Part shown: positions 17,580 through 51,407 of the stretch, piece by piece | How positions within the stretch are numbered: position 1 is the stretch's first letter | How the letters are laid out: each line of letters begins with the position of its first letter | Translations under genes and position numbers: made by a program | DNA from: an uncultured Cytophagia bacterium | Lineage (GTDB): Bacteria; Zhuqueibacterota; Zhuqueibacteria; Residuimicrobiales; Residuimicrobiaceae | Direction: 5' to 3' | NCBI GenBank assembly: GCA_964387285.1 | Contig: CAYLWO010000002.1 | Span: 4,070 to 68,069, forward strand | Length of the DNA stretch: 64,000 bases | Notes under the pieces: model-generated | Database searches by the model: none | What the model was told of the DNA's origin: nothing | The model's input: only the letters and a program-made list of their open reading frames with translations

Positions 17580-17638
17580 AAAAAAGCTCTTGTTTGATAT
17601 ATTTAGCTGAATGGCACGATAGGCGCCCGCAAAACAAC

Positions 17639-17666
17639 CTTGCGAAGGTTTAGAGCCTTCGCCAAG
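17639..17666. terminator. REP-like palindromic hairpin (family C/D copy 1), possible internal terminator/attenuator
   Basis: cttgcgaaggtttagagccttcgccaag is a near-perfect inverted repeat, about 60 nt after the GT2 paralog 2 stop. It is near-identical to 51447-51474. No strong T-run follows. Confidence 0.4.
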
Positions 17667-17725
17667 ATAATACAATCGTTCAGTTCTGGTAAATAATATT
17701 TTGACACCCGTTTTGGGATTATCGA

Positions 17726-19288
17726 ATGAAACACATTCTTGCCATAACCATCATTTCATATTCGCTGCTCTTTTCGGCCCCCCCCAGTTCCGTGAATGTG
17801 CCGAATGACTATTGGGGATATGGTTTTCTGGAACGTATGGAAACCAAGGGACTGTTGAAAAGTTACCAGCTTTGTACCCGCCCTGTTTCGCGTACGATCT
17901 TTGCCGAACTGTTGCGGCAGACGACAGAACAATTGCAGCGCAATGCCGCAATTCTGAGCAAAACGGATCAGCAATTGCTCGAGCAGCTCCAGGGCGATTT
18001 TTACGATGAACTGCATCCTGTCTCATCCGAGCGCGGTCCCGAACGCCATTTTACCAGTTGGAAAGAAGGGCAAAGCCGTTTGCATATCGATCTGTATGGC
18101 AAACAGTCCATCATCTCCAATCGTGGCCAGCAATATGAAACCAGCGAGTTGATCTCTGAAACCTCTCTCGGCGCCATCCTGCGCGGCTCGCTCAGCAACA
18201 CCATCGGATTTTATCTGGATGCGCGCAATGCACTCACCCGCGGCAAGGATGAAATATTGGAAGAAAATTTCGATCCGTCTCAGGGCTCGCCGGTGGTGAT
18301 TTCCGGTTCAAACGTTTTTCAGGATCGCGCGCTCGCTTACTGGACCTGGCAGAATGCCTGGCTGCGCCTGCAAATGGGCCGTGACGAATTGCAATGGGGA
18401 CCGGGATATCATGCCGGTCTTTCCATCTCCGGCAACATGCCGGCAACAGAAATGATCCGCCTCAGCGCCTCCTTTCGTCGTTTTAAATTCAGCTACATTC
18501 ACGCCTTTCTGCGCAGCAGTCTCGGCCCTAAATATCTGGCCGGTCATCGCCTGGATTACATGGTCAAACCCGGCCTCTATTTCGGCGCATCGGAAACGGT
18601 TATTTATGGCCAACGCGACGTCGAGTTCGCCTATCTCAATCCCATCATGCCGATTCATGTCGCGCAACACCATCTGGGCGACAAGGACAACAAGACCATG
18701 AGTTTGGATGCGACCTGCACGCTGGTCCGCAACTGCAAACTGTATCTGGAATATTTCATCGACGACATGACCAGCAGTGAGAGTTTGACCAAATTCTACG
18801 GCAACAAATTCGCCTTTCTGACCGGAATTCTTTGGACCGATCCGTTGCATATCGCCAATACCGATCTTCGCTGCGAATACTCGCACGTCGAGCCGTACGT
18901 CTATACACACTGGGATTCCATCAACATCTACACCAACTATGACCAGATCATCGGCCACTGGTTGGGGCCTAATGCAGACTGTCTCTTCATACAGGCCGGC
19001 TGGCAACCTTTGCGCGATTTTCGCGTCGAGTTTTTTTGGGAACAGCAGCGCAACGGCGCCGGCAACGCGGACACGCGCACCAGACCTGAACAAGGCATGA
19101 CCAAGCAATTTTTGGGCGGCGTGGTGGAAAAGAAAAAAATGATCGGTTTAAAACTGGTCGAACAGATACGTCGCGATATGTTTGCCTCAGTCAGTTATAC
19201 CTACTGTGATACCCGCAACCTGCATCGCCAGGCTGGTAAAACCTCCTTTGATCATCTGGCCCGCTTTGAATTCTGGTTAAATTATTGA
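17726..19288 (+). CDS. Outer-membrane beta-barrel protein, possibly Wzi-like capsule/glycan anchoring family
   Basis: Signal peptide MKHILAITIISYSLLFSA. N-terminal helical region PNDYWGYGFLERMETKGLL. Aromatic-rich amphipathic strands. C-terminal ...FEFWLNY. Confidence 0.45.
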   Translation: MKHILAITIISYSLLFSAPPSSVNVPNDYWGYGFLERMETKGLLKSYQLCTRPVSRTIFAELLRQTTEQLQRNAAILSKTDQQLLEQLQGDFYDELHPVSSERGPERHFTSWKEGQSRLHIDLYGKQSIISNRGQQYETSELISETSLGAILRGSLSNTIGFYLDARNALTRGKDEILEENFDPSQGSPVVISGSNVFQDRALAYWTWQNAWLRLQMGRDELQWGPGYHAGLSISGNMPATEMIRLSASFRRFKFSYIHAFLRSSLGPKYLAGHRLDYMVKPGLYFGASETVIYGQRDVEFAYLNPIMPIHVAQHHLGDKDNKTMSLDATCTLVRNCKLYLEYFIDDMTSSESLTKFYGNKFAFLTGILWTDPLHIANTDLRCEYSHVEPYVYTHWDSINIYTNYDQIIGHWLGPNADCLFIQAGWQPLRDFRVEFFWEQQRNGAGNADTRTRPEQGMTKQFLGGVVEKKKMIGLKLVEQIRRDMFASVSYTYCDTRNLHRQAGKTSFDHLARFEFWLNY

Positions 19289-19295
19289 TCCGGCC

Positions 19296-20411
19296 TTGAT
19301 AATAATTTTCTACATAACCTGCGGAATGACGGCCATTTACGGCTTGTGCCTCATACTGTTCTCCCTGGGATTGCTGCGCAGGCAGAACAAAAGTGTATTA
19401 CAACCCTTTGTTTCTGTAATTGTAGCTTGTCGCAATGAACAGGAAAATATTACACCCCTGTTGCATGCCTTGACCCGGCAAAATTACCCATCTACGCGCT
19501 TTGAAATTGTCCTGGCCAATGACGCCTCTACAGACGAAACAGGGCAACGGATCAGCGCTTTTTTTAAGACCAATCCCAGTGTTGCTATTAAAAAAATCTC
19601 CGTGCAGAACCGCGATCAGGCGGCTTCGCCCAAAAAAAATGCGCTGAGTCAGGCGATTGCATTTTCTACAGGAGAGGTGCTGCTTTTTACAGATGCCGAT
19701 TGTCGGCCAGGCCCGGACTGGATCGCAAGTATCGTCCAATATTTCTCGCCAGATGTTGGCATGGTTATCGGTTTCTCGCCGTATGAATTGCCTTCGCTGC
19801 AGGGCATTGGGCAACGATTGCTGGCCATAGAGTCCCTATCCCTCGCAGCTCTGGCTGCCGGCACAACCGGATGGGGACGGCCGGCCACCTGTACCGGTCG
19901 CAATCTCGCCTATCGCAGAAAAGTTTATGATGAATTGGGCGGATTCAAGGAAATTGCGCAATTTGTATCCGGCGACGACGATTTGTTTTTAAAACTGGTC
20001 GTGCAACGCACGCGCTATCGGGTAAGATACGCGTTGGACAGCCGCGCGGTTGTGCCGACTCTAATTTTGACAAATGGCCGGCATTTTTTTCAACAACGTT
20101 TGCGCCACGCTTCCAAAGGTTTTCACTATGGCTGGCGCATGACCTCTGTGCTGGCCGGCGCCTGGTTGTACAATTTTTTGTTGTTGGGATTGCTGTTAAC
20201 TCCGTGGCGCGGATATGCCATTATGCTTTTCCTGGTAAAAGCCTTTTCAGAATTACCGCTCCTGCTGGGTTTTGCAGCAAAAATGAACAGAGTATCCTAT
20301 TTTACCGTTTGGCCGTTGGCTGCTTTTTTGCATATTTGTTACGTCGTGGTCATTGGCGCATTGGGACCGTTCCTGAAATTCAATTGGAAAGAGATCAGGG
20401 TTCATTCATGA
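19296..20411 (+). CDS. Membrane GT2 glycosyltransferase, GT21-like paralog 3
   Basis: VSVIVACRNEQENI, FTDADC, SGDDDLF, QQRLRH and C-terminal TMs. Confidence 0.75.
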   Translation: MIIIFYITCGMTAIYGLCLILFSLGLLRRQNKSVLQPFVSVIVACRNEQENITPLLHALTRQNYPSTRFEIVLANDASTDETGQRISAFFKTNPSVAIKKISVQNRDQAASPKKNALSQAIAFSTGEVLLFTDADCRPGPDWIASIVQYFSPDVGMVIGFSPYELPSLQGIGQRLLAIESLSLAALAAGTTGWGRPATCTGRNLAYRRKVYDELGGFKEIAQFVSGDDDLFLKLVVQRTRYRVRYALDSRAVVPTLILTNGRHFFQQRLRHASKGFHYGWRMTSVLAGAWLYNFLLLGLLLTPWRGYAIMLFLVKAFSELPLLLGFAAKMNRVSYFTVWPLAAFLHICYVVVIGALGPFLKFNWKEIRVHS

Positions 20412-21556
20412 TTGGCTTGTCCTACATCGTCCTGGCGTTGACGATTGTTTACGGAATAATCCTTCTGGTCTTTATTGTTGCGCTACGCTTTCCGAGTAAG
20501 GCAAACAGCCCTTTGCAGCCGCGTGTTTCCATCATTGTTGCTGCGCGCAACGAAGAAGCCAACATTGCCGCGCTGCTGGAGGATTTGGTGCAGCAGGATT
20601 ATCCGGCTGAATATGAAATCATTATCGCCAACGACGGTTCAACCGATGGCACGGCTCATCTGGTCAACGGGTTTTGCACCCGCTTTGCCAATATCCATCT
20701 ACTCAATATCGATGAGGCGCCGGCAGGATTCAGTCCGAAAAAATATGCCTTACAATGCGCAGTGGAAAAATCAACCGGCGAGATCATTCTGGCCACGGAC
20801 GCAGATTGTCGCGTGGGACCGGGCTGGATTTCCGGCATGGTTGCTTATTTTGCGCCCGAGGTGGGTTTTGTTATCGGTTTTTCGCAATATGGCAGACCGG
20901 GGCAAAAACAAAAACTGGTGGAACGGTTTCAAGCGTTCGATTTTGTCACGCTCATGGCTGTGGCAGCGGCCAGTACGCATCTGCGCATTCCCATGGCAGC
21001 CTCGGGACAAAATCTGGGCTATCGTCGCGCCGCGTTCATTCAGGTGGACGGCTATCGTTCCATCAGCCATCGCATGTCCGGCGACGATGTCCTACTCATG
21101 CAATTGATTCGCCGTCGCACGGATTATCGTATTTTATACGCTTCGGACCCGCGCACGTATGCTGTGTCAGCGCCGCAACCCACCTGGCCCGCTTTTATCA
21201 ATCAACGCAACCGCTGGGCCTCTAATGGCGGCTATCAATTGCTGTTGAGCCCCTTGTTCTTTAGCTATCTGGTTTTCACCTTTTCCTATAATTTGGCGCT
21301 GCTGCTTGGCCTCTCACTTTACGGCGCCGGTGTTCTTGGCGGATGGGGCATGCCGCTCTGCTTTCTGGCCAAAGGATTTTTTGAATTTTGTGTGGCTTGT
21401 AGCGGTTGCAGATATTTTCAGCGATCTGATCTGCTGAAATATTTTCCTCTGTGGTTTCTACTGCAGATTCCCTATATTGTTCTGGTCGGCGCCATGGGTT
21501 CTTTGGGATTATTTCGCTGGAAGGGCCGCAAAGGCGCGACAAGGATCCGGGCATAG
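20408..21556 (+). CDS. Membrane GT2 glycosyltransferase, GT21-like paralog 4
   Basis: Start ATG overlaps the paralog 3 stop (ATGA). VSIIVAARNEEANI, ATDADC, SGDDVLL, NQRNRWAS. The longer ORF from 20204 was rejected because it overlaps the paralog 3 coding region. Confidence 0.7.
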   Translation: MIGLSYIVLALTIVYGIILLVFIVALRFPSKANSPLQPRVSIIVAARNEEANIAALLEDLVQQDYPAEYEIIIANDGSTDGTAHLVNGFCTRFANIHLLNIDEAPAGFSPKKYALQCAVEKSTGEIILATDADCRVGPGWISGMVAYFAPEVGFVIGFSQYGRPGQKQKLVERFQAFDFVTLMAVAAASTHLRIPMAASGQNLGYRRAAFIQVDGYRSISHRMSGDDVLLMQLIRRRTDYRILYASDPRTYAVSAPQPTWPAFINQRNRWASNGGYQLLLSPLFFSYLVFTFSYNLALLLGLSLYGAGVLGGWGMPLCFLAKGFFEFCVACSGCRYFQRSDLLKYFPLWFLLQIPYIVLVGAMGSLGLFRWKGRKGATRIRA

Positions 21557-22076
21557 CCAAAGGCTGTTTATTTTTTTTCGTTATAATAATAAATGACGTT
21601 CAATGATGCTGTAAGAAATTTATGATCTATTCCCCCATAGTCGCCCAGATGTTTGATGCGACCGGCGAAGTTCTTTTGCACCTGCATCTCGATGCCAATC
21701 TTGTTAAATCTATATCCTGCCGCTAAAATAAAACCGGTAAAGCAAGATAAGCTTCAGCCCAATCCGCATTTACAATCTGTGACCAGTTGCTATAATATGC
21801 CGTTCTATTTTCCACTCTGGCTCCGCGTAGTAGAATTTCCATCCCATAGACCAGCGAAAGGTATTTTTTTGCAAACTCTCGACGCCTATGCCCATGGAAT
21901 ACCTTAATAGTGGTTTGGAAGAGGTGTCGTAAAATTTGGAGCAATTAACGCTGCCGGAAATAAAAAGGGCGAGCCGGCTCGGGTTTCAGAAAAACGAAGC
22001 AACATCAGGAATAGAAACAAAATGCTTTCTAAAACCGTCTGAAAACCGTAAATTCTGCACTGATTTGAGGAAGAGC

Positions 22077-23132
22077 ATGAGCGCACCGATACAGCTGCTA
22101 AACAATCTGTTACATCGCCGGCCGGTCAACTCGAGCACGGAAATCCGTCTGACCCGCCTGTGCACGCAACGCTGCCGGCAGTGTCGCGTTTACGAACGGG
22201 AAACCCAGCCGGCCAGCATGAGTCTGGAACAATTTCAAATGATCCGGCGGCGGTTGCGTGAATACGGTGCCTGGCTCGGCTTTATCTCCGGCGGCGAAGC
22301 GTTGCTGGCGCCGGATCTGTTGCCCATCCTGGCAGAGGCGAAAAAGACCTTTCGCTGCGCCACCACCCTGGTCACAGGGCTTTACCATCAACGTCAACGG
22401 GTATTGGAAGCGGCCGAGTTTTGCCTGGCAAACAATATCAACATCCAGACCTCCATGGACGGCATCGGCCCTGTGGGTAATTACTTGCGCGGCGTCAAGA
22501 ATTTTAGCGATACCGTGCTGGAGCATATGGCCTTAATCAGCGCCATGAAAAAAAATTCTCAATCGCTGCTCTACGCAAACATTGTGCTCAACAACCTGAA
22601 TCGCAACCAGGTTCCGGATCTGATCCGGCGCTGCCGCGGCCTGGGTTGGCGCGTCACCATCGGCCTGTATCACAACCTTACCGAGACCACACGCAGAGAC
22701 GACGAGTTGCGTATTACACCGGATGAACAACTTGATCAACTGCTGGCTTTTCTGGATCACAATCCGGATATTTTGAATTTAAATTCATTCATTCGCGGCA
22801 TCGGCCCGTTTTTACGCAGCGGGAAAACGACACGTTGTCCCTTTGTCGCCGGCCGCATCTGGATGACGCGCACCACCATCATGGAAAACGGCGACCTGCA
22901 TCTGTGTTGGGGCGGCCCCATCGGCAATCTTTTCTCCTCTTCCCTGCGGGAAATATTCCACAGCTCCGTTTATACCGACCGCCTGGCTGCTTACGACCGC
23001 TGTGCCGGCTGTTGGACCACCTGCTACACGCAACGGCTGTTGCTCTTGCGTCCTCGCTCCCTGACCGAATTACGAGACAACATCGTCAAGATGATCCACC
23101 TGCGTCGTTATCAACAGGAGCGGCCGGCGTGA
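22077..23132 (+). CDS. Radical SAM protein with Cys-rich C-terminal domain, paralog 2
   Basis: RLCTQRCRQC (Cx3Cx2C), ISGGEALL. C-term CPFVAG...LHLCWGG...CAGCWTTC. Start chosen at the ATG preceded by GAGGAAGAG. The ORF-track start at 21936 lacks an RBS. Confidence 0.65.
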   Translation: MSAPIQLLNNLLHRRPVNSSTEIRLTRLCTQRCRQCRVYERETQPASMSLEQFQMIRRRLREYGAWLGFISGGEALLAPDLLPILAEAKKTFRCATTLVTGLYHQRQRVLEAAEFCLANNINIQTSMDGIGPVGNYLRGVKNFSDTVLEHMALISAMKKNSQSLLYANIVLNNLNRNQVPDLIRRCRGLGWRVTIGLYHNLTETTRRDDELRITPDEQLDQLLAFLDHNPDILNLNSFIRGIGPFLRSGKTTRCPFVAGRIWMTRTTIMENGDLHLCWGGPIGNLFSSSLREIFHSSVYTDRLAAYDRCAGCWTTCYTQRLLLLRPRSLTELRDNIVKMIHLRRYQQERPA

Positions 23133-23899
23133 AAAAATTTTTATTTCTTTTACTGATCGCCGGCGTAGCCGGCAGTGGTGAAAAAGTGCGATTCATCGGC
23201 CATGCTGATTTAAATCGATTTATTGGCGAACAACTGGATTTCTCCTTGTCCTTGCGCGGGGTCAGCGCAGCCAAGGCGCGCATGCTTTGCGACACCCTCG
23301 GTATCGACCGCTGGCTTATCTCAGCCGACATATCGACAAAATTCTGGGCTGATCTGGTTTTCCCAGTGCACAATATTTACCAGACCTTTCTCGATCGCCG
23401 CGACGGCCGCACTGCAGAGACCTATAAAAAAATCAAACAAAAAAATCTTGGCCAGGAGATGCATGTCGTTTTTGATTATAAACAAAAGCAGGCGACCGGT
23501 TATTCGGATGGCAGCCGCACCATTCGCGATTCCCTGCAAACCCTCTTTGCCATGCTCTATCACTTGCGCGCCATGGATTTGTCTTTACATGATTCTGTCT
23601 TCTGTTTATTGGAAATTGAATCACAGTGGTGGCAAGTAGCCGGGAAAGTCAGACAGGGAGAAAAAACCACCGGACCTTTTTCTCGTCTCGAGGTCCGCGA
23701 TGTGGTGCTTACTTTTTCCCCTCACGGCGCGGTTGTTGCCCGTCCCTGGAAAACCGATTTGCTGACCAATCGCATTGCCCGCAGCGGCCGGTTGCTCATC
23801 CGGCTGGGGCCTGCGCCGGAGAATTTGCCAATATGGATACAGATCGGCGAGGCCAAACAGACCGTGACGCTCAAATTGAACAGCTGTAAAAAGGTGTAA
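23129..23899 (+). CDS. Secreted hypothetical protein (possibly DUF3108-like)
   Basis: GTG start overlapping the upstream stop (GTGA). Signal peptide VKKFLFLLLIAGVAGSG. About 256 aa, no catalytic motif recognised. Confidence 0.4.
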   Translation: MKKFLFLLLIAGVAGSGEKVRFIGHADLNRFIGEQLDFSLSLRGVSAAKARMLCDTLGIDRWLISADISTKFWADLVFPVHNIYQTFLDRRDGRTAETYKKIKQKNLGQEMHVVFDYKQKQATGYSDGSRTIRDSLQTLFAMLYHLRAMDLSLHDSVFCLLEIESQWWQVAGKVRQGEKTTGPFSRLEVRDVVLTFSPHGAVVARPWKTDLLTNRIARSGRLLIRLGPAPENLPIWIQIGEAKQTVTLKLNSCKKV

Positions 23900-23902
23900 T
23901 GC

Positions 23903-25030
23903 ATGGTCACGCTCATCCATATATTTTGCGCCATCCTCTATCTTTTAGTAGGCATCGCTATCCTGTTGCTGCTGAAAAAAAGCTGGCCACAAAAAAAGTC
24001 TGTGGAACCGGTTCTGGCCTCTGTCATCATTGCCGGACGCAATGAAGCGCCGCATTGGCCGGCCTGTTTGGACGCTTTGGCAAATTTGGATTATCCGACG
24101 GACAAATTGGAAATCATCCTGGTTGACGATGCCTCCCGCGATCACTCCTTGTCGCTTTTGCGTGCGTTTGCGCAACAGCGTCCGTTTGTACGCGTCATCT
24201 CCCTTTCTGTGGAAGCGAAAGAATTGGCCGGCAAGGCCGGCGCGGTTTTGCCGGCCATCGAATCCAGCAAGGGCGAAATTATCTTTGTCACGGATGCCGA
24301 TTGTCAAGTTCCGCAAAACTGGATTTTAAGTCACCTTTCCTTCTTTACTGATGAGGTGGGATTGGTCGGCGGCCTGACTTTGCTGGATCAACCGCGTCAC
24401 AAGTATGGCGCTTTTCAGCGTATCCAATCCCTGGATTGGTTGTTCCTGCTGTCGGTCGCCTTTGCGGCCGGCCGTATCGGCAGACCCCTGAGTTGGATGG
24501 GCAACAACATGGCCTTTCGTCGCACAGCGTATCACGCGGTGGGCGGCTATCGTTCGCTGGCCAGCCATTTAATCGAAGATTTCAGTCTGATGGACGCGAT
24601 GGTCCGGCAGACTCCGTGGCGGGTTGTTTTACACACCCAGGCCTCGGCCATGGTGCTAAGCTGCGCTGAAAAAACCGTGACCGGGCTTTATCGACAGCGT
24701 CGGCGTTGGGCCCTGGGCGTACGACCGGTGCGCCTGTTGGGTAAAGGCTTGTTGTCGGTTTTTTATATCAGCCACATGCTGGTTTGGTTGGCGTTGGTTT
24801 GCAGCCAGACAACAGGATGGCTGCTATTTATCGTCATCCTCGCAACAGATGCAGCCATTCTGATCACAGCTGCCGGACCGATCAACCGGCATGATCTGTT
24901 GAAATGGCTGCCTAGCTTGCAATTGTATTATTTCCTGGCAATCTTGTTGCTGCCGCCGATTCTTTTATTCGATAAAAAAATCATCTGGAAGGACAAGGTC
25001 TACCATTCAATGGATCAAAGTGTCCGCTGA
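23903..25030 (+). CDS. Membrane GT2 glycosyltransferase, GT21-like paralog 5 (divergent D3 motif EDF)
   Basis: ASVIIAGRNEAPHW, IILVDDASRDH, VTDADC, LIEDFSLMDAM (resembles the AEDYF region of ceramide glucosyltransferase), RQRRRWALG, C-terminal TMs. Confidence 0.75.
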   Translation: MVTLIHIFCAILYLLVGIAILLLLKKSWPQKKSVEPVLASVIIAGRNEAPHWPACLDALANLDYPTDKLEIILVDDASRDHSLSLLRAFAQQRPFVRVISLSVEAKELAGKAGAVLPAIESSKGEIIFVTDADCQVPQNWILSHLSFFTDEVGLVGGLTLLDQPRHKYGAFQRIQSLDWLFLLSVAFAAGRIGRPLSWMGNNMAFRRTAYHAVGGYRSLASHLIEDFSLMDAMVRQTPWRVVLHTQASAMVLSCAEKTVTGLYRQRRRWALGVRPVRLLGKGLLSVFYISHMLVWLALVCSQTTGWLLFIVILATDAAILITAAGPINRHDLLKWLPSLQLYYFLAILLLPPILLFDKKIIWKDKVYHSMDQSVR

Positions 25031-41474: not shown

Positions 41475-43487
41475 TTATTGTTTGACTGCCAGCACCGCCT
41501 GACGCGTCGCCTGCAACAACGGTTCTGCCGATACCGGGCTGCCAACGGCCAGGCGCATCCAGGCGTCTGGAGTGATGGCGCCAAGCCTGCACATGCGTTC
41601 CATTTCGGCGCCGAGATTTTTGTTCTGCAAATATTGCTCGATTTGGAACATGATGATATGACCGAGAGAGTAATCGGGCAAATACAAGCCGGAATCGATC
41701 ATATGCGAATAGATGGCCAACAAGTAAGTATCCTTGACGCCCAACAAAGGCTGCCAATATTTATTCCACAGTTCGCGGGAAATTTCCAGCACCGCAGCTT
41801 TCAACTCGGCCGGGCCTGCTTGCGGATGATCATACATCCAATGCCACACCTTCATATCGAGCAATCCTACCGAAGCGATTTCACAAGTAGCCCAGTAGGT
41901 ATCCAGTGCGGCCAGGTGCTCCGCCTGTGGATCGCTTTGCACTAAGCCCAAGAGTTCCAGATCACGCGATTGGAAAACGAAAGCAAAAGCTTCGGTAAAA
42001 GCGGTATTGGGCACGCCGGCCAGAAGCGAATGATCGATGCGATTAAGGGAAAACACCTGCTCAACGCAATGACCCAATTCATGAATGGCAATATTATAGC
42101 CTTTATAACGCATGCCGTCGCCGGGGATGCGCGTGCGTAAATGCGCCTGATCTTCGCGACGGCCCGCGCCCATCGCATGGCCGGCGCCGCGCGAAGGATC
42201 TACGACAATCTTTTCGGATAAAAACTGCGACGTATCCCGGTTAAAATCCAGCTTGGTTAATATATTAATCAGATCCGCCTGAAACGCCGCTGTGGTGGGA
42301 TAAAGCGATTTTGTCCGACGATCCAGTTCCTCTTCGTTGTAATGGGCGGCCGGCTTGAAACCGTTATACCAAATATCAAAGGATTCCAGTTTGCGACCCA
42401 ATCGCCTGGCGATAAGCCGGCTAACTTGTTTAGCCACCGGATCCGTAAGCACCGAAATCAACAGTTGTTCAAACTGGGCTTCGGGAATTTCACGATCTCT
42501 TTCAAAGCGACGCGCTGGTTTACTCGGCAGTTGCGGGAAATAGACGTCCGCCTGTCGTTCCGCGTGAAAAATATTGAGTAAAAATTGATACCGTGTATCC
42601 GGCTCTGATTTGAAAGGAACCGGCGGCAAAAGGGCATTCTTGAATGGATTCCAAACCAGGCTGTCGTTATCGATCACGGCTTGCGGAATTTCCTGTGCAA
42701 TGATTCGCTCCATCACCGCGCGGATCATGCGTTGCCGGGCCAGACCGTTGGCATTGGCGTACTGGGCTTTCAACTCGTCGCGCAATCCCCAGTGGGTGAT
42801 CAGTTTTAATCCTGCCGGAAAAAGCCGCTGACCGCTATCATCAACAAGCTGATGCATATGGATGTTATAATTAGCAATATAATCATCAGCCTGAACATAG
42901 GCTGTGGACAAAGCCTGGTTCACATCTGCAGGCACGCGATCCAGGAACCGTTGCGCCAATCGCGCTTGTGCCCACTGTTCGCGACTCCATTGCAGCCCCT
43001 GCTGCAACCGCTCCGCCAGCGTGGTATTGGCAAAATTAAGCAGCACCACAAAGGCAATTTTTGTTTTAAACAAATCTTCGGTAACATGTGCAGACGGATT
43101 ATATTGAGCAAACAGATAATCTACAGGTAAAATCGATCCCATCTCCAATTGCATCGGCCGCGACAAATCACGTCCAACCTCAACGTTATGCCCGCCGATG
43201 ATCTCGAGATTGGTCTCCGTCCTTGCCAGGGTATTTTGCAGATCCTGCGGCGAGGCGATGAAATGATCCAGACAAAAATGCTGAAAAGCCTGTTCATTCC
43301 CGTCCTGTGTTCGCCATAATGCAGCGGCCTGGCGCACGCCCTGAACCATGCGCAAATGATTACCTGCGCCGTAACGGGTTTGCAGGTCCTGAATGGTTTG
43401 TTGAATGATGCGCTCTTCCATACTCCTGGATTGAGTTGATAAAAGCAAACAGAGTACTATGAGAATAGCCAGGCGTAAGCGATGCAT
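41475..43487 (-). CDS. Secreted putative zinc metallopeptidase (HExxH)
   Basis: Start at MHRLRLAILIVLCLLLS after the GGGAGG RBS. HELGHCVEQ zincin motif. 670 aa, no closer family assignment. Confidence 0.4.
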   Translation of the reverse strand: MHRLRLAILIVLCLLLSTQSRSMEERIIQQTIQDLQTRYGAGNHLRMVQGVRQAAALWRTQDGNEQAFQHFCLDHFIASPQDLQNTLARTETNLEIIGGHNVEVGRDLSRPMQLEMGSILPVDYLFAQYNPSAHVTEDLFKTKIAFVVLLNFANTTLAERLQQGLQWSREQWAQARLAQRFLDRVPADVNQALSTAYVQADDYIANYNIHMHQLVDDSGQRLFPAGLKLITHWGLRDELKAQYANANGLARQRMIRAVMERIIAQEIPQAVIDNDSLVWNPFKNALLPPVPFKSEPDTRYQFLLNIFHAERQADVYFPQLPSKPARRFERDREIPEAQFEQLLISVLTDPVAKQVSRLIARRLGRKLESFDIWYNGFKPAAHYNEEELDRRTKSLYPTTAAFQADLINILTKLDFNRDTSQFLSEKIVVDPSRGAGHAMGAGRREDQAHLRTRIPGDGMRYKGYNIAIHELGHCVEQVFSLNRIDHSLLAGVPNTAFTEAFAFVFQSRDLELLGLVQSDPQAEHLAALDTYWATCEIASVGLLDMKVWHWMYDHPQAGPAELKAAVLEISRELWNKYWQPLLGVKDTYLLAIYSHMIDSGLYLPDYSLGHIIMFQIEQYLQNKNLGAEMERMCRLGAITPDAWMRLAVGSPVSAEPLLQATRQAVLAVKQ

Positions 43488-43692
43488 AGCCGCCTCCCTA
43501 TCTGAGTAATGGATAATTACAATCACTATTTTATTCATTTTTCCGCACAAATCAAAACAAAATGATCACAGTATCCGTGTAATTTATATTAAAGACACCT
43601 AAATCCTGTGTAATACTTATTATAAAAACCCCTTGAATTTAAAGAAAATATCCGTTATTTTTTGAATCAAAAGAACTCTCCGGGAGCCCATC

Positions 43693-45302: not shown

Positions 45303-45932
45303 TCACGCCTCCATGGCGCCCTGACTTTTGCGCTTTTGCAGGCGTGAATAGACAAACCACCCCAGCAATGCAACAAGAAACACGACCACCCCGATATCGA
45401 TCTGGTGGGAATACTTTTGCACTACCGGCCAATTTTCACGCAACTTGATTCCCAAAAACAGCAAAAAACTGTTCCAGATCGTGGCGCCCAGCAAGGTGAC
45501 GAGGATAAAGGGGCCAATGGGCATTTTACCCATGCCGGCCGGAATGGATACAAAATGGCGGATCACCGGAATAAAGCGGCTGATGAACAGGGTCCAGACG
45601 CCGCTGCGTTTGTTAAAAAATTTTTCCGTCATTTCCAGATCGTGTTTATCCAGCAACAGATATTTCCCCACGCGCAACACCAGCGGCTTGCCGCCGTACA
45701 ATCCCAGATAATAGGAAATCAACGAGCCGATAATGGAACCAAGGGAGGTTGCCAAAACGGCAACCGGTAAATTCCATTTGCCGTCAGCTACCAAAAATCC
45801 CACAAACGGCATCACCGCTTCGCTCGGCACCGGAGCGATCATGCTCTCCAACGCCATCAACAAACCCGCGCCCCAATAGCCCATCATTTCTAAAATTTTT
45901 ACGGCATATTGAGAAATAATCTCTGTAATCAT
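45303..45932 (-). CDS. DedA/VTT-domain membrane protein
   Basis: YWGAGLLMALESMIAPVPSE...FISRFIPVIR DedA signature. Confidence 0.8.
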   Translation of the reverse strand: MITEIISQYAVKILEMMGYWGAGLLMALESMIAPVPSEAVMPFVGFLVADGKWNLPVAVLATSLGSIIGSLISYYLGLYGGKPLVLRVGKYLLLDKHDLEMTEKFFNKRSGVWTLFISRFIPVIRHFVSIPAGMGKMPIGPFILVTLLGATIWNSFLLFLGIKLRENWPVVQKYSHQIDIGVVVFLVALLGWFVYSRLQKRKSQGAMEA

Positions 45933-46037: not shown

Positions 46038-47126
46038 TCATCTTACGCGATTGTCCAGAATTTTTTTCAATCCCGCACTGGCGCCCGGCGACCAGCCGAA
46101 TGCCCGTTGCCAGACTTCGTCGCTTTCCATGCAAAGATACAACCCATCGTCGAATCCATAACGATTGATCCATTGCTTCATCCTGCTGAACATCTCGATG
46201 CGCTGCGGTTTGAAATAGCGCAGTTTTTTGTCAACACCCGGCAACAATTCGCCCAAAACAATTTGCGAGTGCGGATGGGCCTGACGAATGATGTCGTCCA
46301 TGGCTGAGGGATAACGCAAGGCGCCCAGACTGATCCAGGCGATGTTTTCCGGCCGGGCAAAAGAAAAAATGCGGTCAACCGTCTCTCGATAATAATCCTG
46401 CCAACCCGCAAAATAGATCATGGGGTCGAAATGAAAACCCAACCGGTATCCCGCCTTTTGCACCTCCTTGGCCGCAGCCAGGCGATCTGCCAACGTAGGC
46501 GCATCCGGTTCTTCACTGCGACAGATCGGCTCTGCATTGACCGACCAGGAGACTATGGTCCGCCGTCCATGATCAAGCGTCAACAAGTTGTCGATGTGTA
46601 CGTTTTTCGATTTCAGTTCAATGACCGCATTGTGTTGTGGTCTGAACCAGTTCACCAGGTCCACAGACAATCCGGTGAGATGATCAAAGGTCATGCTGTC
46701 CGACAGTTCGCCGGTGCCGATGCGAAAAAAACGGTCGGCCGAACGCTGCAACGCTTCCGCCAACTCGCAAAACATATCACCGGCATTCACGTACAAAGTG
46801 GTGCACGGCGTATTGAGATAACCCTGCAGAATGCAATAACTGCAGCCCAGATCACATCCGGCTGCCACATCCAGGTTTTGATATAAACAGCAAATATGCT
46901 TGGGCGTGCCGGGACAATAGCGCAGAAACGGCCCGCGCTGTTTTGCCAACAACAAAGTTCCTGACGGACTCGTCCGCGACCACAAAGATTCCGCGTCAGC
47001 AATCGTTTCCAGCGGAGTGTGCGGCAAACGAGACAGGATCCGTTGCGTCAGCGGCTCTTTCGCTACCGATTCTTCAATGTAGATGCGCAGCGGTTGAAAA
47101 TTTTTCTGTGAGGGAAAAGAGATCAT
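46038..47126 (-). CDS. Radical SAM protein, spore-photoproduct-lyase-like (COG1533/SplB family)
   Basis: CDLGCSYC (Cx3Cx2C) near the N-terminus. 362 aa. ATGA overlap with the upstream ParB-like gene. Confidence 0.6.
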   Translation of the reverse strand: MISFPSQKNFQPLRIYIEESVAKEPLTQRILSRLPHTPLETIADAESLWSRTSPSGTLLLAKQRGPFLRYCPGTPKHICCLYQNLDVAAGCDLGCSYCILQGYLNTPCTTLYVNAGDMFCELAEALQRSADRFFRIGTGELSDSMTFDHLTGLSVDLVNWFRPQHNAVIELKSKNVHIDNLLTLDHGRRTIVSWSVNAEPICRSEEPDAPTLADRLAAAKEVQKAGYRLGFHFDPMIYFAGWQDYYRETVDRIFSFARPENIAWISLGALRYPSAMDDIIRQAHPHSQIVLGELLPGVDKKLRYFKPQRIEMFSRMKQWINRYGFDDGLYLCMESDEVWQRAFGWSPGASAGLKKILDNRVR

Positions 47127-48106
47127 GCCAATCCAACCATGTTTTCGATAATGCCGTCATCGGCCAGGCGCTGCAATTCATGCACCTGCTGTTGAAATTC
47201 CCTGCTGTCCTTGAAGGTAAAAGAGACGGAAAACTCATCATGAGAAAAAAACAAGGGCGCCTGCAATCGGCACGTTGGTGGCAGGTGCGCGGCTTTGAGC
47301 AAATCATTAAATTTTTTTTGCACCACACTATACTGCGGATAACGCAAACGAATCAGTTCTGCTTTAACGCGTTCCACTTTTTGCGAAGGCGTGAGCGTGG
47401 TTTCCGACAAAACATCAGTCAAAGCCGGTTGCTGTAATAACGTGCAGAGGTCCCTGTTTAACATGCGACTCACATCGCACGCCAATTGACAAAATTCCTT
47501 CTGCCTGTTTTTGCCCAACCGGAGGGACTTGAAAAGATGCAGCAGGCCATGACGTTCCGGAATCGACAACGCGACCAGTGTCGGCAACAAATCCAGCGAC
47601 AGCCAATCCTGTGCAAGCTCGGCTTTGCTAACGTCGTCCAATTCGTACAGCGGCCGATATAACTCGAACAACTTTACATTTTTCCCCAATCCCAATAACG
47701 GTAAAAAATGCTCCACGATTCTATTGCGGGCAACCGCTTTTTGTTCCAACTTGAACAGCACGGTAGCAATCTCTAAAGGATTCAACATACTGGACCGATC
47801 AGACAGGGCTAACGTGTACAGTTCTTCCTCCGGGCAGCGTTCGGCAATCAATAAAACCGGGACCTGCGGCCAAAGCAATTCGCGCGCTAGTTGCAGACGT
47901 TTAAAACCCATTACCGGTTGATATCTGTTATCCGGCAATTTACGCACCAGCAACGGCTGCAGCATGCCCAGGGTCGCCAGACTGGCGCGCAAGGATTCCT
48001 CCGGTGCAGCTAACGAAATGCGAAACTCTTCATCCTGGCTGATAAGCGCGGTTTCGAGGTTTAAAAACTGGAATTTTCTCATCTTTCTCTCTGAAATCGG
48101 TTTCAT
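47123..48106 (-). CDS. ParB/Srx-like nuclease-domain protein
   Basis: ParB N-domain motifs LGMLQPLLVR and YQPVMGFKRLQLAREL...VPVLL. The helical C-terminal region is uncharacterised. Confidence 0.6.
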   Translation of the reverse strand: MKPISERKMRKFQFLNLETALISQDEEFRISLAAPEESLRASLATLGMLQPLLVRKLPDNRYQPVMGFKRLQLARELLWPQVPVLLIAERCPEEELYTLALSDRSSMLNPLEIATVLFKLEQKAVARNRIVEHFLPLLGLGKNVKLFELYRPLYELDDVSKAELAQDWLSLDLLPTLVALSIPERHGLLHLFKSLRLGKNRQKEFCQLACDVSRMLNRDLCTLLQQPALTDVLSETTLTPSQKVERVKAELIRLRYPQYSVVQKKFNDLLKAAHLPPTCRLQAPLFFSHDEFSVSFTFKDSREFQQQVHELQRLADDGIIENMVGLA

Positions 48107-48259: not shown

Positions 48260-48706
48260 ATGGCGTATGATAGTAAAGGCACCCTGAACAAGGTCATGTT
48301 GATCGGCCGACTGGGCCAGGATCCGGAGGTCAAATACACGCCCTCCGGCGCAGCAGTGGTCACCCTGAGCGTGGCAACCAACACCTCCTATAAGGATCAG
48401 GAGGGTAAAATGCAGGAGCAAACGGAATGGAATCGCGTGGTGGCCTGGCGCAAGACGGCTGAAAACATCGGCCAATATTGTAAAAAGGGTCACCGTATTT
48501 ATGTGGAAGGCAAACTCACTACCCGCTCCTGGAACGACAAGGACGGCAACAAACGCTACACCACCGAAATCACTGCTGATTCCGTGCAATTTCTGGAAGG
48601 CAAATCCGATCGAGAACCGGCAGGGCCGGCAGAACCGCCGCCGCATCCTGCTGAAGCGGATTTCAGCGCACCCATGCCGGCCGAAGCAGATGATCTGCCC
48701 TTCTAG
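48260..48706 (+). CDS. ssb: Single-stranded DNA-binding protein
   Basis: OB fold LNKVMLIGRLGQDPEVKYTPSGAAV...TEWNRVVAW. Acidic tail DDLPF. Confidence 0.9.
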   Translation: MAYDSKGTLNKVMLIGRLGQDPEVKYTPSGAAVVTLSVATNTSYKDQEGKMQEQTEWNRVVAWRKTAENIGQYCKKGHRIYVEGKLTTRSWNDKDGNKRYTTEITADSVQFLEGKSDREPAGPAEPPPHPAEADFSAPMPAEADDLPF

Positions 48707-48761
48707 GGGCTGTCGGCTGATAAAATCGTTTACTTTGTCCGACAATTTTCTTACTTTACAT

Positions 48762-48789
48762 CCAGGTCCTTCAGACCTGGATTTTTTTT
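48762..48789 (+). terminator. Rho-independent terminator after ssb
   Basis: ccaggtccttcagacctgg hairpin followed by tttttttt. Confidence 0.7.
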
Positions 48790-48802
48790 GCAGGAGATTG
48801 AA

Positions 48803-49195
48803 ATGCACGCGTATTCAGAACTTGCCGCCAAAGCGCGACATTCTCTGAAATTTTCCCAGGCCATTTATTCCGGCTTTGCGGTCGGCGCCGCATTGCTGGC
48901 TAAAGACGGAACCATCTTTACCGGATGCAATGTCGAATCCAGTTCGTATGGACTCACCATTTGTGCAGAACGGGTGGCTTTGGTTAAAGCTCTGTCGGAA
49001 GGCGTGACCGAATTCACCGCCATTGCCGTTGTCACGCCGAAGAAGCCCTTGTGTCCGCCCTGCGGCGCCTGTCGGCAGCTGTTATGGGATTATACGAAAA
49101 ATATTGTTGTGATTATGGCGACAGAAGACGAACAACAAACAACGACCCTGGCTGAGTTGCTGCCGTTTGCTTTTGATAACCGGTTTCTGTTATGA
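48803..49195 (+). CDS. cdd: Cytidine deaminase
   Basis: CAERVALVKA...PCGACRQ zinc-binding motifs. ATG chosen after the AGGAG RBS. Confidence 0.85.
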   Translation: MHAYSELAAKARHSLKFSQAIYSGFAVGAALLAKDGTIFTGCNVESSSYGLTICAERVALVKALSEGVTEFTAIAVVTPKKPLCPPCGACRQLLWDYTKNIVVIMATEDEQQTTTLAELLPFAFDNRFLL

Positions 49196-49833
49196 TGCAT
49201 AAACCTCTGGTGATTGCCGTTGCCGGCGGCTCTGGTTCCGGCAAAACCTATTTGACGGAAGAGTTGGCCAAGGTTCTGGCTGATTATCATCCCTTGTTGC
49301 TTTCACAGGACTATTATTATCGCGATCGTTCGGAGCTGACTTTAGCGCAACGACAGACCATCAATTATGATCATCCGGACGCCATAGAATTTTCTCTTTT
49401 AATCGCGCAACTGCGGGATTTGTGCGAGCGCAAAAGCATCACGCATCCGTTGTACGATTTTAGCCAACACAATCGCCGTCCGGAATGCATAGCCGTTGCA
49501 CCGGCAGACATCATCCTGCTGGACGGCATCCTGTTGTTGGCCGTTGCGGAATTGGCGCCGCTGCTGGATGTGAAAATATTCGTCGATACGGCCAAGGATA
49601 TTTGTTTTATCCGCAGGCTGCAGCGCGATACGGCTGAACGCGGCCGTTCGATGCAATCGGTCATCGATCAGTATACCGCCACGGTTCGTCCCATGTATTT
49701 GCAGTACGTTTATCCCAGTCGCCATAACGCCGATATCATTGTCTCCGGCGAGGAGGAAGTCGGCTCTTTGGTTAAAAAAATTCTCGCCGAGATTGGCAAA
49801 CGATATCCGTCTCTCTTGCATCAGATCAAATAA
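49192..49833 (+). CDS. udk: Uridine kinase
   Basis: P-loop VIAVAGGSGSGKT. ATGA overlap with cdd. Confidence 0.88.
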   Translation: MMHKPLVIAVAGGSGSGKTYLTEELAKVLADYHPLLLSQDYYYRDRSELTLAQRQTINYDHPDAIEFSLLIAQLRDLCERKSITHPLYDFSQHNRRPECIAVAPADIILLDGILLLAVAELAPLLDVKIFVDTAKDICFIRRLQRDTAERGRSMQSVIDQYTATVRPMYLQYVYPSRHNADIIVSGEEEVGSLVKKILAEIGKRYPSLLHQIK

Positions 49834-49848
49834 TCGGGAAAGGTTTTT

Positions 49849-50409
49849 ATGCTCAATGTCGTACCCAAAGGCGTCGGTTGGATCGAGGTAATCTGCGGCA
49901 GCATGTTCAGTGGAAAAACCGAAGAGTTGATCCGGAGATTGAAACGTGCGGAAATCGCCAAGTTGAAAACCGCTATTTTCAAACCAAAGATTGATGATCG
50001 CTACTCGGTCGAACATATTGTTTCACACAACGCGTTGAAACTGCCTTCCATTGCCGTGAGTTCGGCCCAGGACATTCTGGCGCAGGCCGGCGATGCAGCG
50101 GTCATCGGCATTGACGAAGCGCAGTTCTTTGGTCTGGATTTGGTAGAGGTGTGTCAAAAGCTGGCTAACATGGGCAAGCGCGTCATTGTCGCCGGACTGG
50201 ACCAGGATTATACCGGCAAACCTTTTGAACCCATTCCGCAGTTGTTGGCCGTAGCGGAAGACATCCATAAAACACTGGCCATCTGTGTGAAATGCGGCAA
50301 TCCGGCCAATCGCACGCAAAGATTGAGTCGCGATGCAGAGCGCGTGGTGGTGGGCGCCGCCGATATCTATGAAGCGCGCTGCCGGTTTTGCCATGAAGTG
50401 TATGAGTAG
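49849..50409 (+). CDS. tdk: Thymidine kinase
   Basis: [21 protein letters not shown]-loop. C-terminal zinc ribbon CVKCG...CRFC. Confidence 0.9.
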
Positions 50410-50437
50410 CTTTGTCTTTTGTGCCAAGTAGTCAAGA

Positions 50438-50498
50438 ATAGTAATGGCATAAATGCCATGATTATCCAAATAACACGAAAACCATGTCATTGCGAACG
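50438..50498. repeat. Intergenic repeat family A/B copy 2
   Basis: agtaatggcataaatgccatgattatccaaataacacgaaaaccatgtcattgcgaacgc is homologous to 8787-8846. It shares the ATGGCA-n4-TGCCAT hairpin. Confidence 0.6.
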
Positions 50499-50567
50499 CA
50501 GGTAATTCCCGTTTATCCAGGTTAGGACCAGGGTGATTGTTCCTTTCTCTCGGAATGGTTTTAAAAA

Positions 50568-51407
50568 ATGCTGCTTAAAGAAAAAATCAAGGAATCTCTG
50601 GCTGTGCTCCAGGCTCGGCTGCATGCGCCGGCGCCGAAAACAGCTTTGGTTTTGGGCTCGGGTTTGGGTCGATTTGCTGATTCCATCGAGGATGCTACTG
50701 TCATTCCCACTGCGGATATTCCACATTATCCCCGTTCCACGGTTCCTGGACATGCCGGCCGTTGGTATATCGGTAGAATTCGTAATGTGCCCATCATAGC
50801 CCTGCAGGGCCGGGTGCATTATTATGAGGGATATTCTCTGCAAGAGGTTGCCTTTCCCATTCATGTATTAGCCGGCCTGGGCGTCAACACCTTGCTGGTA
50901 ACAACCGCCAGCGGCGGTTTGAACCCTCATTACTCCAGCGGTGATTTGATGGTCATTACGGATCATATCAAATTCATACCCGGCAATCCGTTGCGCGGCA
51001 AGCCGGACGATTTACTCGGCCCGCGTTTTCCTGATCTATCGACCTGTTACGATAAAAGATTAATCCAACTGGCCCTGGCCGCCGCTGCGGATATGGGCAT
51101 CCCCTTGCATCGGGGTGTGTTCTGTTGTATGACCGGCCCGGCCTATGAAACAGCGGCCGAAGTGCGCATGCTGCAAAGATTGGGCGGCGATGCCGTCTCC
51201 ATGTCCACCGCGCCGGAAGTGATTGCTGCGCGGCAGCGGCATATGCGGGTTCTGGGCATTGCGCTTATTACCAATGCCGCTACAGGCATCTCCCCCGATC
51301 CGTTATCGCATCAAGAAGTAACAGAGGCGGCCGACAAAGCCGGAGATAAACTGGGCCGGTTGTTGATGGAAATCATTGTGCGAATGCAAAACATGGATAA
51401 AAAATAA
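50568..51407 (+). CDS. punA: Purine nucleoside phosphorylase (PNP/MTAP family I)
   Basis: LVLGSGLG...HAGRW...ASGGLNP...STAPE motifs. Confidence 0.85.
   Translation: MLLKEKIKESLAVLQARLHAPAPKTALVLGSGLGRFADSIEDATVIPTADIPHYPRSTVPGHAGRWYIGRIRNVPIIALQGRVHYYEGYSLQEVAFPIHVLAGLGVNTLLVTTASGGLNPHYSSGDLMVITDHIKFIPGNPLRGKPDDLLGPRFPDLSTCYDKRLIQLALAAAADMGIPLHRGVFCCMTGPAYETAAEVRMLQRLGGDAVSMSTAPEVIAARQRHMRVLGIALITNAATGISPDPLSHQEVTEAADKAGDKLGRLLMEIIVRMQNMDKK

Follow-up and report, generated by a model that had tools for sequence, protein, structure and literature searches.

Why is a gene for a ParB-like protein joined to one for an enzyme of the radical S-adenosylmethionine (SAM) type, and on what do the two products act? 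The question is raised by positions 46038 to 48106 of a 64,000-nucleotide (nt) stretch of contig CAYLWO010000002.1 from an uncultured Cytophagia bacterium (the window). Here a ParB-superfamily accessory protein (the partner) is joined to a radical SAM enzyme with the fold of spore photoproduct lyase (SPL). This association appears to be new: no description of the pair was found in the literature searched, and radical SAM partners are unmentioned in a 2025 survey of ParB-CTPase-fold proteins. Of the readings considered, a DNA-directed function has the most support. The pair is laid out as follows.

47123-48106, minus strand: gene of the ParB paralogue, an open reading frame (ORF) of 327 amino acids (aa); the probable true start is Met9 (ATG at 48082), giving 319 aa
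46038-47126, minus strand: gene of the SPL-fold radical SAM enzyme, 362 aa
47123-47126, minus strand: ATGA stop/start overlap of 4 nt, with translational coupling

A preliminary description of the window had reported these ORFs, their motifs, a ParB and an SPL-family domain, and translational coupling through an ATGA overlap, and all of this was borne out by coordinates and Pfam matches. LGMLQPLLVR and VPVLL occupy residues 46-55 and 83-87 of the ParB-like protein (327-aa numbering), which matches ParB_N with 31.6 bits over residues 37-86 (cut-off, 26.3). CDLGCSYC forms residues 91-98 of the radical SAM protein, which matches the SPL family PF20903 with 104.3 bits over residues 85-293 (cut-off, 27). 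The junction reads ...TTG GCA TGA, with the ATG of the radical SAM gene nested within it. The Met9 start is favored by the source record and by the orthologue alignment (319 aa). The source records give no protein name for either window protein. The window lies on a contig of 248 kb, and the relatives of this contig belong to candidate division KSB1.

To judge the pairing in other genomes, the enzyme alignment was scanned over one-genome-per-species data, and the best 80 loci (41 to 72% identity) were analyzed. Enzyme relatives are encoded in at least 579 species-level genomes, and the best 80 loci belong to KSB1, Calditrichota, Zixibacteria, Thermodesulfobacteriota/'Deltaproteobacteria', Acidobacteriota, and Auribacterota. 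The partner was sought with a hidden Markov model (HMM) of the ParB-like protein; 77 loci had enough upstream sequence to be judged. A ParB-like gene lies directly upstream of the enzyme gene and on the same strand in 63 of these 77 loci (82%). The two genes overlap in 40 of the 63, and the overlap is the identical 4 nt in 26. In the reciprocal look-up, a PF20903 gene was immediately downstream of all four ParB-like genes found by their own profile, although the flanks of these four loci differ (SAICAR synthase, DUF2058, DciA/UvrC, or the KSB1 ssb cluster). Adjacency in 82% of loci across phyla, together with the four of four reciprocal matches, leads us to reject both chance and lineage synteny as causes of the pairing, and on the same grounds the ParB-like/radical SAM pair is a conserved operon. 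The proposal of an uncharacterized, conserved two-gene module therefore held up in this neighborhood check.

The sole sequence relative of the enzyme in the PDB is SPL (E, 1e-36), and to our knowledge SPL is so far the only characterized member of its radical SAM fold. The AlphaFold2 (AF2) model of the enzyme has a predicted local distance difference test score (pLDDT) of 85.9. In Foldseek it matches SPL with a template modeling (TM) score of 0.69 to 0.75 over about 350 columns at 21 to 23% identity, and the next folds, at about 0.4, include the pyruvate formate-lyase (PFL)-activating enzyme among the distant matches. The SPL fold expected for the radical SAM protein was thus recovered by structure prediction. 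Sequence alignment gave no match to SPL for the C-terminal 100 residues of the enzyme. For comparison of residues, the Geobacillus SPL sequence was rebuilt from two PDB alignments and aligned to 78 enzyme orthologues, in which two segments stand out.

46833-46856, minus strand: radical SAM cluster motif C91-x3-C95-x2-C98 (CDLGCSYC), in 78 of 78 orthologues
46887-46916, minus strand: cysteine-rich segment C71-P-G-T-x-x-H-I-C79-C80, family specific, including an insertion without an SPL counterpart

The family resembles SplB (PF20903/TIGR04070; PDB 4FHC) in the whole-length fold and in the position of the CxxxCxxC motif, with C91, C95, and C98 aligning with SPL C90, C94, and C97. The equivalent of SPL Tyr96 is invariant, as are K174, S195, and R271, the counterparts of SPL K174, S195, and R273, which contact SAM and the lesion phosphate according to PMC3467042. 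However, identity to SplB is only about 22%, and SPL Cys140 is replaced by Glu140 in all 78 orthologues. At the position of SPL Tyr98 (enzyme residue 99), 60 of the 78 have Ile, 14 have Val, and 1 has Tyr. Since Cys140 and Tyr98 are missing, the chemistry of the enzyme probably differs from that of SPL. Four cysteines are added, namely, C71, C80, and C332 (each in 78 of 78) and C79 (77 of 78), along with an insertion of 6 to 7 residues (HICCLY) and a C terminus about 30 residues longer. These four extra invariant cysteines suggest a putative auxiliary metal site. K301, R303, Y304, and R309 are invariant as well, and their alignment to the SPL hairpin residues Arg304-Tyr305/Lys309 is ambiguous (MAFFT pairs K309 with K301). 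The hosts are non-sporulating, and the usual upstream partner of SplB is SplA, whereas here it is a ParB paralogue. The enzyme scores 103.7 bits with TIGR04070, against an equivalog cut-off of 400, and 53.4 bits with the SPL-family model TIGR03886, against 437.55. The enzyme family is therefore a distinct orthologous family with the SPL fold and not an SPL equivalog or orthologue. The earlier assignment as a DNA-lesion-type radical SAM enzyme stands for the fold and fails for equivalog membership (score; Cys140 and Tyr98 gone), so that DNA-lesion-type chemistry is inferred and does not follow from family membership.

The same residues bear on whether the enzyme could be a genuine spore photoproduct lyase, or a related pyrimidine-dimer lyase, that carries out direct-reversal repair in non-sporulators with the ParB paralogue aiding DNA scanning. 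The full-length SPL fold and the conserved SAM/phosphate contacts agree with this, and source records name such proteins 'DNA photolyase' or 'spore photoproduct lyase'. The invariant C71 also falls within one residue of the clostridial H-donor cysteine position (Ser76 in Geobacillus, Cys77 in Clostridium). It aligns onto S76C of 4rh0, an active C140A/S76C mutant, in one HMMER alignment and is one residue off in MAFFT and in a second HMMER alignment; C71 could thus be an SPL-like hydrogen donor. Nevertheless, we regard such a lyase as very unlikely. The enzyme's score amounts to a quarter of the equivalog cut-off, 74 of 78 orthologues have Ile or Val in place of Tyr98, an invariant Glu stands in for Cys140, and the extra invariant cysteines, the insertion, and the C-terminal extension have to be accounted for. 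In addition, the hosts are non-sporulating and, as we judge from record titles (groundwater, hydrothermal and marine sediments, peat), live mostly in dark anoxic habitats, where UV photoproducts should be rare. A link of the pair to a glycosyltransferase, described below, would also be left unexplained. The altered active site, the non-sporulating dark-habitat hosts, and the glycosyltransferase link favor a different lesion or a base modification.

Judged by profile comparison, the partner appears to be a complete ParB paralogue with a nucleotide-binding N-terminal domain, a helix-turn-helix (HTH) domain, a dimerization domain, and a family-specific insert.

47837-48073, minus strand: ParB N-terminal domain, nucleotide binding, ParB/Srx fold, residues ~12-90
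47522-47830, minus strand: helical region with homology to the HTH DNA-binding domain of ParB/KorB, residues ~93-195
47288-47518, minus strand: family-specific helical insert, residues ~197-273, with motifs LRLGKNRQKE and RLRYP
47126-47278, minus strand: C-terminal beta-beta-alpha domain, ParB dimerization-like (hhalign, AF2 secondary structure), residues ~277-327

The partner profile can be aligned to ParB from Myxococcus, to Noc, and to Spo0J over the N-terminal domain and the HTH (E, 9e-20 to 1e-11), and both the ParB/Srx fold and the ParB-type HTH DNA-binding domain are present. For the C-terminal ~170 residues there was no PDB match, and for the dimerization-like domain no Pfam match. By hhalign against canonical ParBs (probability, 86%; E, 4.7e-6), the C-terminal module is collinear with the end of the HTH and the ParB_C dimerization domain, with an insert of about 75 residues between them that is missing from canonical ParB. 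Within the insert, R255 is invariant and P257 is nearly invariant. The nucleotide pocket is recognizable in the consensus of 159 representatives as Box I GxL[N/Q]P, Box II GFRR, and Box III DNLxxR, in which the catalytic Glu of GERR has become Phe and both arginines are retained.

Like the ParB-CTPase-fold DNA clamps ParB/Spo0J, Noc, and KorB, the partner family carries the N-terminal domain, HTH, and C-terminal dimerization-like domain in that order, with Boxes I to III in its consensus. It differs from them in the Phe of the GERR motif, the ~75-residue insert, the low family score (24.7 bits with TIGR00180; cut-off, 58.45), and the radical SAM companion gene. No parA was found next to the partner, whose neighbors are the radical SAM gene and ssb or a glycosyltransferase gene, and the window contains no canonical parB. 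The separation is sharp, since members score 180 to 400 bits with the family profile and canonical ParBs at most 90 bits. An exhaustive search returned about 2,010 partner clusters (50% identity; E ≤ 1e-30), of which the best 150 are nearly all about 320 aa long. The partner evolves fast, with 20 to 41% identity where the enzyme keeps 41 to 72%, and the ParB-paralogue family is too divergent for sequence-pattern design. Nothing was found in support of the DNA-nicking or nuclease role proposed earlier for the ParB-like protein.

Seven metagenome loci, reached via the glycosyltransferase, have shorter partner ORFs of about 180 to 260 aa that cover only profile positions ~155-325. These short partners consist of the insert and the C-terminal domain and stand directly before an orthologous enzyme gene and after the glycosyltransferase gene (locus numbers prefixed with L).

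L103:1431-1997, short partner ORF
L108:3429-3986, short partner ORF
L127:1595-2164, short partner ORF
L128:1580-2128, short partner ORF
L129:5785-6354, short partner ORF
L146:5587-6381, short partner ORF
L165:4406-4981, short partner ORF

The enzymes having short partners carry Tyr at the SPL Tyr98 position, and the cysteine-rich signature is common to enzymes with short partners or no adjacent partner. At L054:3795-5210, the enzyme ORF has an N-terminal extension of about 110 aa that matches partner profile positions 156-255, which may reflect a natural fusion or else an artifact of assembly or of a frameshift in the metagenome-assembled genome (MAG). Because the short partners and the L054 extension retain the insert, this region appears to be the constant companion of the enzyme, with the N-terminal domain and HTH as a probable addition in most lineages. 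The preliminary description had laid its emphasis on the ParB N-terminal domain; that domain is present, but the part that stays with the enzyme is the C-terminal insert region. Its retention suggests that the insert region docks the enzyme, and, together with translational coupling, argues for a predicted physical complex of partner and enzyme.

A constant protein module that is translationally coupled to the enzyme and contains an invariant Arg255 and a near-invariant Pro257 (RYP) might instead be a substrate. The enzyme would then modify or activate the partner, or a protein presented by it, at the insert or C-terminal domain, and the PFL-activating enzyme is indeed among the distant fold matches. 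We consider protein-directed chemistry highly improbable, the least probable of the explanations weighed here. SPL is far closer in fold than protein-modifying radical SAM enzymes (TM, 0.7 versus 0.4), no glycyl-radical signature or signature of the type seen with peptides that are made on ribosomes and modified after translation (RiPPs) was present, and the full ParB DNA-binding architecture of most partners would go unexplained.

The pair lies beside ssb and nucleoside salvage genes, as the preliminary description had noted. The link to ssb occurs in two arrangements.

48260-48706, plus strand: ssb (Pfam SSB, 1.4e-40), divergent from the pair; its membership of the module is uncertain
L077:7190-7672 and L067:7385-7792: downstream ssb in loci without an adjacent ParB-like gene, independent of the KSB1 arrangement

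The divergent ssb recurs in 15 KSB1-lineage loci besides the window. The second arrangement, with ssb 119 to 242 nt downstream of the enzyme gene and on the same strand, was seen in two Desulfobacterota loci. In the window, the genes after ssb are cdd, udk, tdk, and one for a PNP-family phosphorylase (cluster 48260-51407, plus strand). The salvage genes were rejected as functional partners, as they were found only in KSB1 relatives; synteny within the KSB1 lineage accounts for the nucleoside salvage context and for most of that of ssb. What remains of the reported context is ssb, linked in both arrangements. In another KSB1 genome (L083:179-4819), ssb-cdd-udk-tdk-PNP stands beside the pair along with hemerythrin and a concentrative nucleoside transporter; such close clustering of ssb and genes for pyrimidine salvage is unusual. 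UvrC and DciA are encoded near the pair in L086. A search of the ssb/parB-like intergenic region for a parS site or operator gave a sole conserved block, TTGTCAAG, which is the ssb promoter's -35 box (TTGACA).

On the other side of the pair lies one more gene.

45303-45932, minus strand: gene of a DedA/UptA-like membrane protein, 105 nt downstream, with a VTT domain (NF052604, 152.6 bits; cut-off, 250)

It is possibly cotranscribed with the pair and is probably outside the module; as an operon member it was rejected, being kept downstream only in the 7 closest loci and the window. Farther along, the 691-aa ORF at 41475-43550 (minus strand) contains HELGH, a motif like that of zinc metallopeptidases, and, N-terminally, a signal-like segment.

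The module was proposed to consist of two genes. The pair itself is conserved, but the module often has three genes: in roughly one locus in four to one in three, a conserved soluble family 2 glycosyltransferase (GT2) is encoded upstream of the pair. This GT2, unnamed by NCBIfam, is conserved at 413 to 487 bits across phyla. Its gene immediately precedes the pair in 16 loci, which belong to genomes of the FCB group and Desulfobacterota; in two more loci, it directly precedes an enzyme gene that has no ParB-like companion.

L023, L025, L028, L031, L033, L034 (3998-4987), L047, and L049: pair preceded by GT2
L053, L055, L057, L062, L068, L070, L075, and L079: pair preceded by GT2
L069:243-1091 and L077:5045-5953: GT2 before the enzyme gene, no ParB-like gene

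Seen from the GT2 side, 44 metagenome loci had enough downstream sequence, and a ParB-like gene was present in 14, an enzyme gene in 12, and both in 10. These two are the commonest GT2 neighbors in the 44 loci, and none other is as frequent. No orthologue of the module GT2 was found within the window (best, 37 bits). Five window ORFs give weak-to-moderate GT2-type matches, none of them orthologous to the module GT2, and their region (12608-25027, plus strand) is probably a polysaccharide biosynthesis locus.

12608-13705, plus strand: GT2-type ORF
16449-17576, plus strand: GT2-type ORF
19281-20408, plus strand: GT2-type ORF
19934-21553, plus strand: GT2-type ORF
23900-25027, plus strand: GT2-type ORF

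The GT2 of L068:4030-4863 weakly matches TIGR04440 (42.6 bits; cut-off, 70), a model whose library label, 'TIGR00180 family glycosyltransferase', contains the accession of the ParB/partition model. The label may be a naming glitch or a hint of a curated glycosyltransferase/ParB-family link. In three metagenome loci, a gene for a canonical ParB (ParB_N, HTH_ParB, and ParB_C) lies on the strand opposite the GT2 gene, at a distance of 1.3 to 2 kb.

L137:2465-3328, canonical ParB near GT2
L139:7371-8234, canonical ParB near GT2
L152:7142-8002, canonical ParB near GT2

Rarer neighbors include an aldo/keto reductase gene abutting the enzyme gene in L024, L029, and L164 and PNP_UDP_1-type genes in L141 and L164. 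The operon at L164:1150-8921 runs in the order unknown gene, sulfatase-like, PNP_UDP_1, GT2, ParB-like, radical SAM, and aldo/keto reductase, the last five genes overlapping by 4 nt. A PNP_UDP_1-like protein of about 275 aa is encoded after GT2 in seven loci (L143, L136, L114, L130, L131, L135, and L148). In L143 (2404-5070) and L136 (2759-6195), it is followed by a divergent SPL-like gene whose product scores 153 to 181 bits with the family HMM. The products lack C71, C79, C80, and E140, the three cysteines being missing from SPL as well. The middle protein of these two loci was considered as a divergent ParB and rejected (hhalign probability, 2%), being PNP_UDP_1-like instead. In L078 (4816-5991; an Auribacterota MAG), a lysine-2,3-aminomutase-like radical SAM gene (LAM_C) ends 1 base before the SPL-like gene, and no ParB-like gene is present there.

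The GT2, nucleosidase, and reductase neighbors suggest the main rival explanation, a small-molecule or glycoconjugate pathway whose substrate would be, for example, nucleoside, sugar, or lipid derived rather than DNA. The 5'-deoxyadenosyl radical might add to the substrate, as with HpnH and MqnE, and the nucleosidase, reductase, and GT2 would process the product. The ParB paralogue would be a transcription factor of the operon or an SbnI-like kinase-regulator with the ParB/Srx fold. In pathway logic, the hopanoid side chain enzymes HpnH/HpnG/HpnI and the futalosine enzymes MqnE/MqnB are comparable, in that genes for a radical SAM enzyme, a nucleosidase of the PNP_UDP_1 type, and a GT2 likewise occur together in L164, L143, and L136. 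However, the radical SAM subfamilies are unrelated, a ParB paralogue has no role in those pathways, and the extra genes are rare near the pair and absent from the window. The nucleosidase and the reductase each occur in 2 to 3 loci among about 100, and the GT2 is missing from most pair loci. A regulator would leave the 4-nt coupling, the HTH-less short partners, and the apparent L054 fusion unexplained, and for an SbnI-type regulator, the ParB matches of the partner are stronger than those to SbnI or SerK and take in the HTH and the C-terminal domain. We know of no SPL-fold member that acts on a small molecule, which also counts against this explanation. Overall, we consider it unlikely.

No defense, viral, or plasmid signal was found. 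PADLOC defense models gave no match at the locus, no viral contig encoding an enzyme relative was found, and PHROGs gave generic ParB and glycosyltransferase matches only. No orthologue was found on plasmids, where the matches were confined to true SPL and SPL-family genes (≤30% identity). A defense, phage, or plasmid origin was rejected on these results.

What, then, does the pair do? We favor a ParB-tethered or ParB-activated, DNA-directed two-subunit radical SAM system for repair or modification, and tentatively give it slightly less than an even chance. It is supported by SPL being the sole close fold, by a full ParB paralogue with an HTH, by the ssb link in two independent arrangements, and by indications of a stoichiometric complex. 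Several observations weigh against it. The catalytic Cys140 and Tyr98 positions of SPL are not kept, as noted above, and the region of its lesion-flipping hairpin aligns poorly, with a pLDDT of 50 to 66 there in the enzyme model. The pocket of the window protein reads GMLQP / GFKR / SDRSSM, with a degenerate Box III, and no parS-like site was found near the operon. The enzyme has no adjacent partner in 12 of the 77 loci, where the neighbors are unrelated genes, and the short partners are without the ParB N-terminal domain and most of the HTH. Finally, some neighbors, namely, the recurrent GT2 and, occasionally, a PNP-type nucleosidase or an aldo/keto reductase, resemble small-molecule or glycan metabolism.

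A functional precedent for the DNA-directed reading is provided by a phage thymine dioxygenase (5mYOX), which needs a ParB-like protein for activity on double-stranded DNA according to PMC13229309. Hypermodification genes, glycosyltransferases among them, often accompany 5mYOX/ParB systems (PMC13229309). As in those systems, a ParB-like gene adjoins the enzyme gene here (in 82% of loci), with DNA as the predicted target of the enzyme. In contrast, 5mYOX is an O2-requiring Fe/2-oxoglutarate dioxygenase from a phage context whose ParB has no DNA-binding domain, whereas the present system is chromosomal, shows no viral or defense signal, and combines radical SAM, an anaerobic chemistry, with an HTH-bearing ParB. 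Other ParB-superfamily proteins also lie inside DNA modification gene clusters. DpdB is a ParB-superfamily component of 7-deazaguanine DNA modification systems. DndB is one within the DNA phosphorothioation gene cluster (PMC10853773). Unlike the pair, both belong to defense/modification islands with restriction partners, and the partner enzymes are unrelated.

From the observed gene order, coupling, conservation, folds, and residue patterns, we infer a DNA substrate, formation of a complex, and a chemistry as follows. The ParB paralogue would bind DNA, possibly as a nucleoside triphosphate-gated clamp in which the nucleotide is bound and hardly hydrolyzed, given the Phe in place of the GERR Glu. 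Its helical insert and C-terminal domain would dock the enzyme encoded downstream. The CxxxCxxC [4Fe-4S] cluster and SAM would generate a 5'-deoxyadenosyl radical, which may attack a nucleotide flipped out of the DNA, most plausibly a pyrimidine. As the Cys140/Tyr98 relay is replaced and extra invariant cysteines are present, reversal of another lesion or a base modification is more likely than the SPL reaction, and SAM would probably be consumed. In the many lineages with a cotranscribed GT2, that enzyme may act on the same substrate. A bolder version, which we consider quite unlikely, is that all three proteins, the GT2, the ParB paralogue, and the SPL-like enzyme, make up a pathway that hypermodifies DNA bases on bacterial chromosomes independently of oxygen. 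Loaded onto DNA by the ParB clamp, the enzyme would activate a pyrimidine by radical chemistry, and the glycosyltransferase would then decorate it.

SPL is a textbook case of radical DNA repair. The present family is large and uniform, extends over several phyla, and keeps the SPL fold with a rewired active site and a dedicated ParB paralogue. The system is compact, with two or three genes, and is directly testable by heterologous expression. If the small-molecule explanation is true, the enzyme would be the first with an SPL fold to act on a substrate other than DNA. If the DNA-directed reading is true, it would add to the cases in which proteins of the ParB-CTPase fold load or activate enzymes that modify DNA, and it could reveal a new way of repairing lesions or a new kind of DNA modification. 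An anaerobic DNA glycosyl-hypermodification pathway would be categorically new, an anaerobic counterpart of base J and of phage 5-hydroxymethyluracil and 5-hydroxymethylcytosine glycosylation in hundreds of sediment and groundwater species. With a DNA substrate, radical SAM chemistry on DNA would be extended to the chromosomes of abundant, poorly studied anaerobes.

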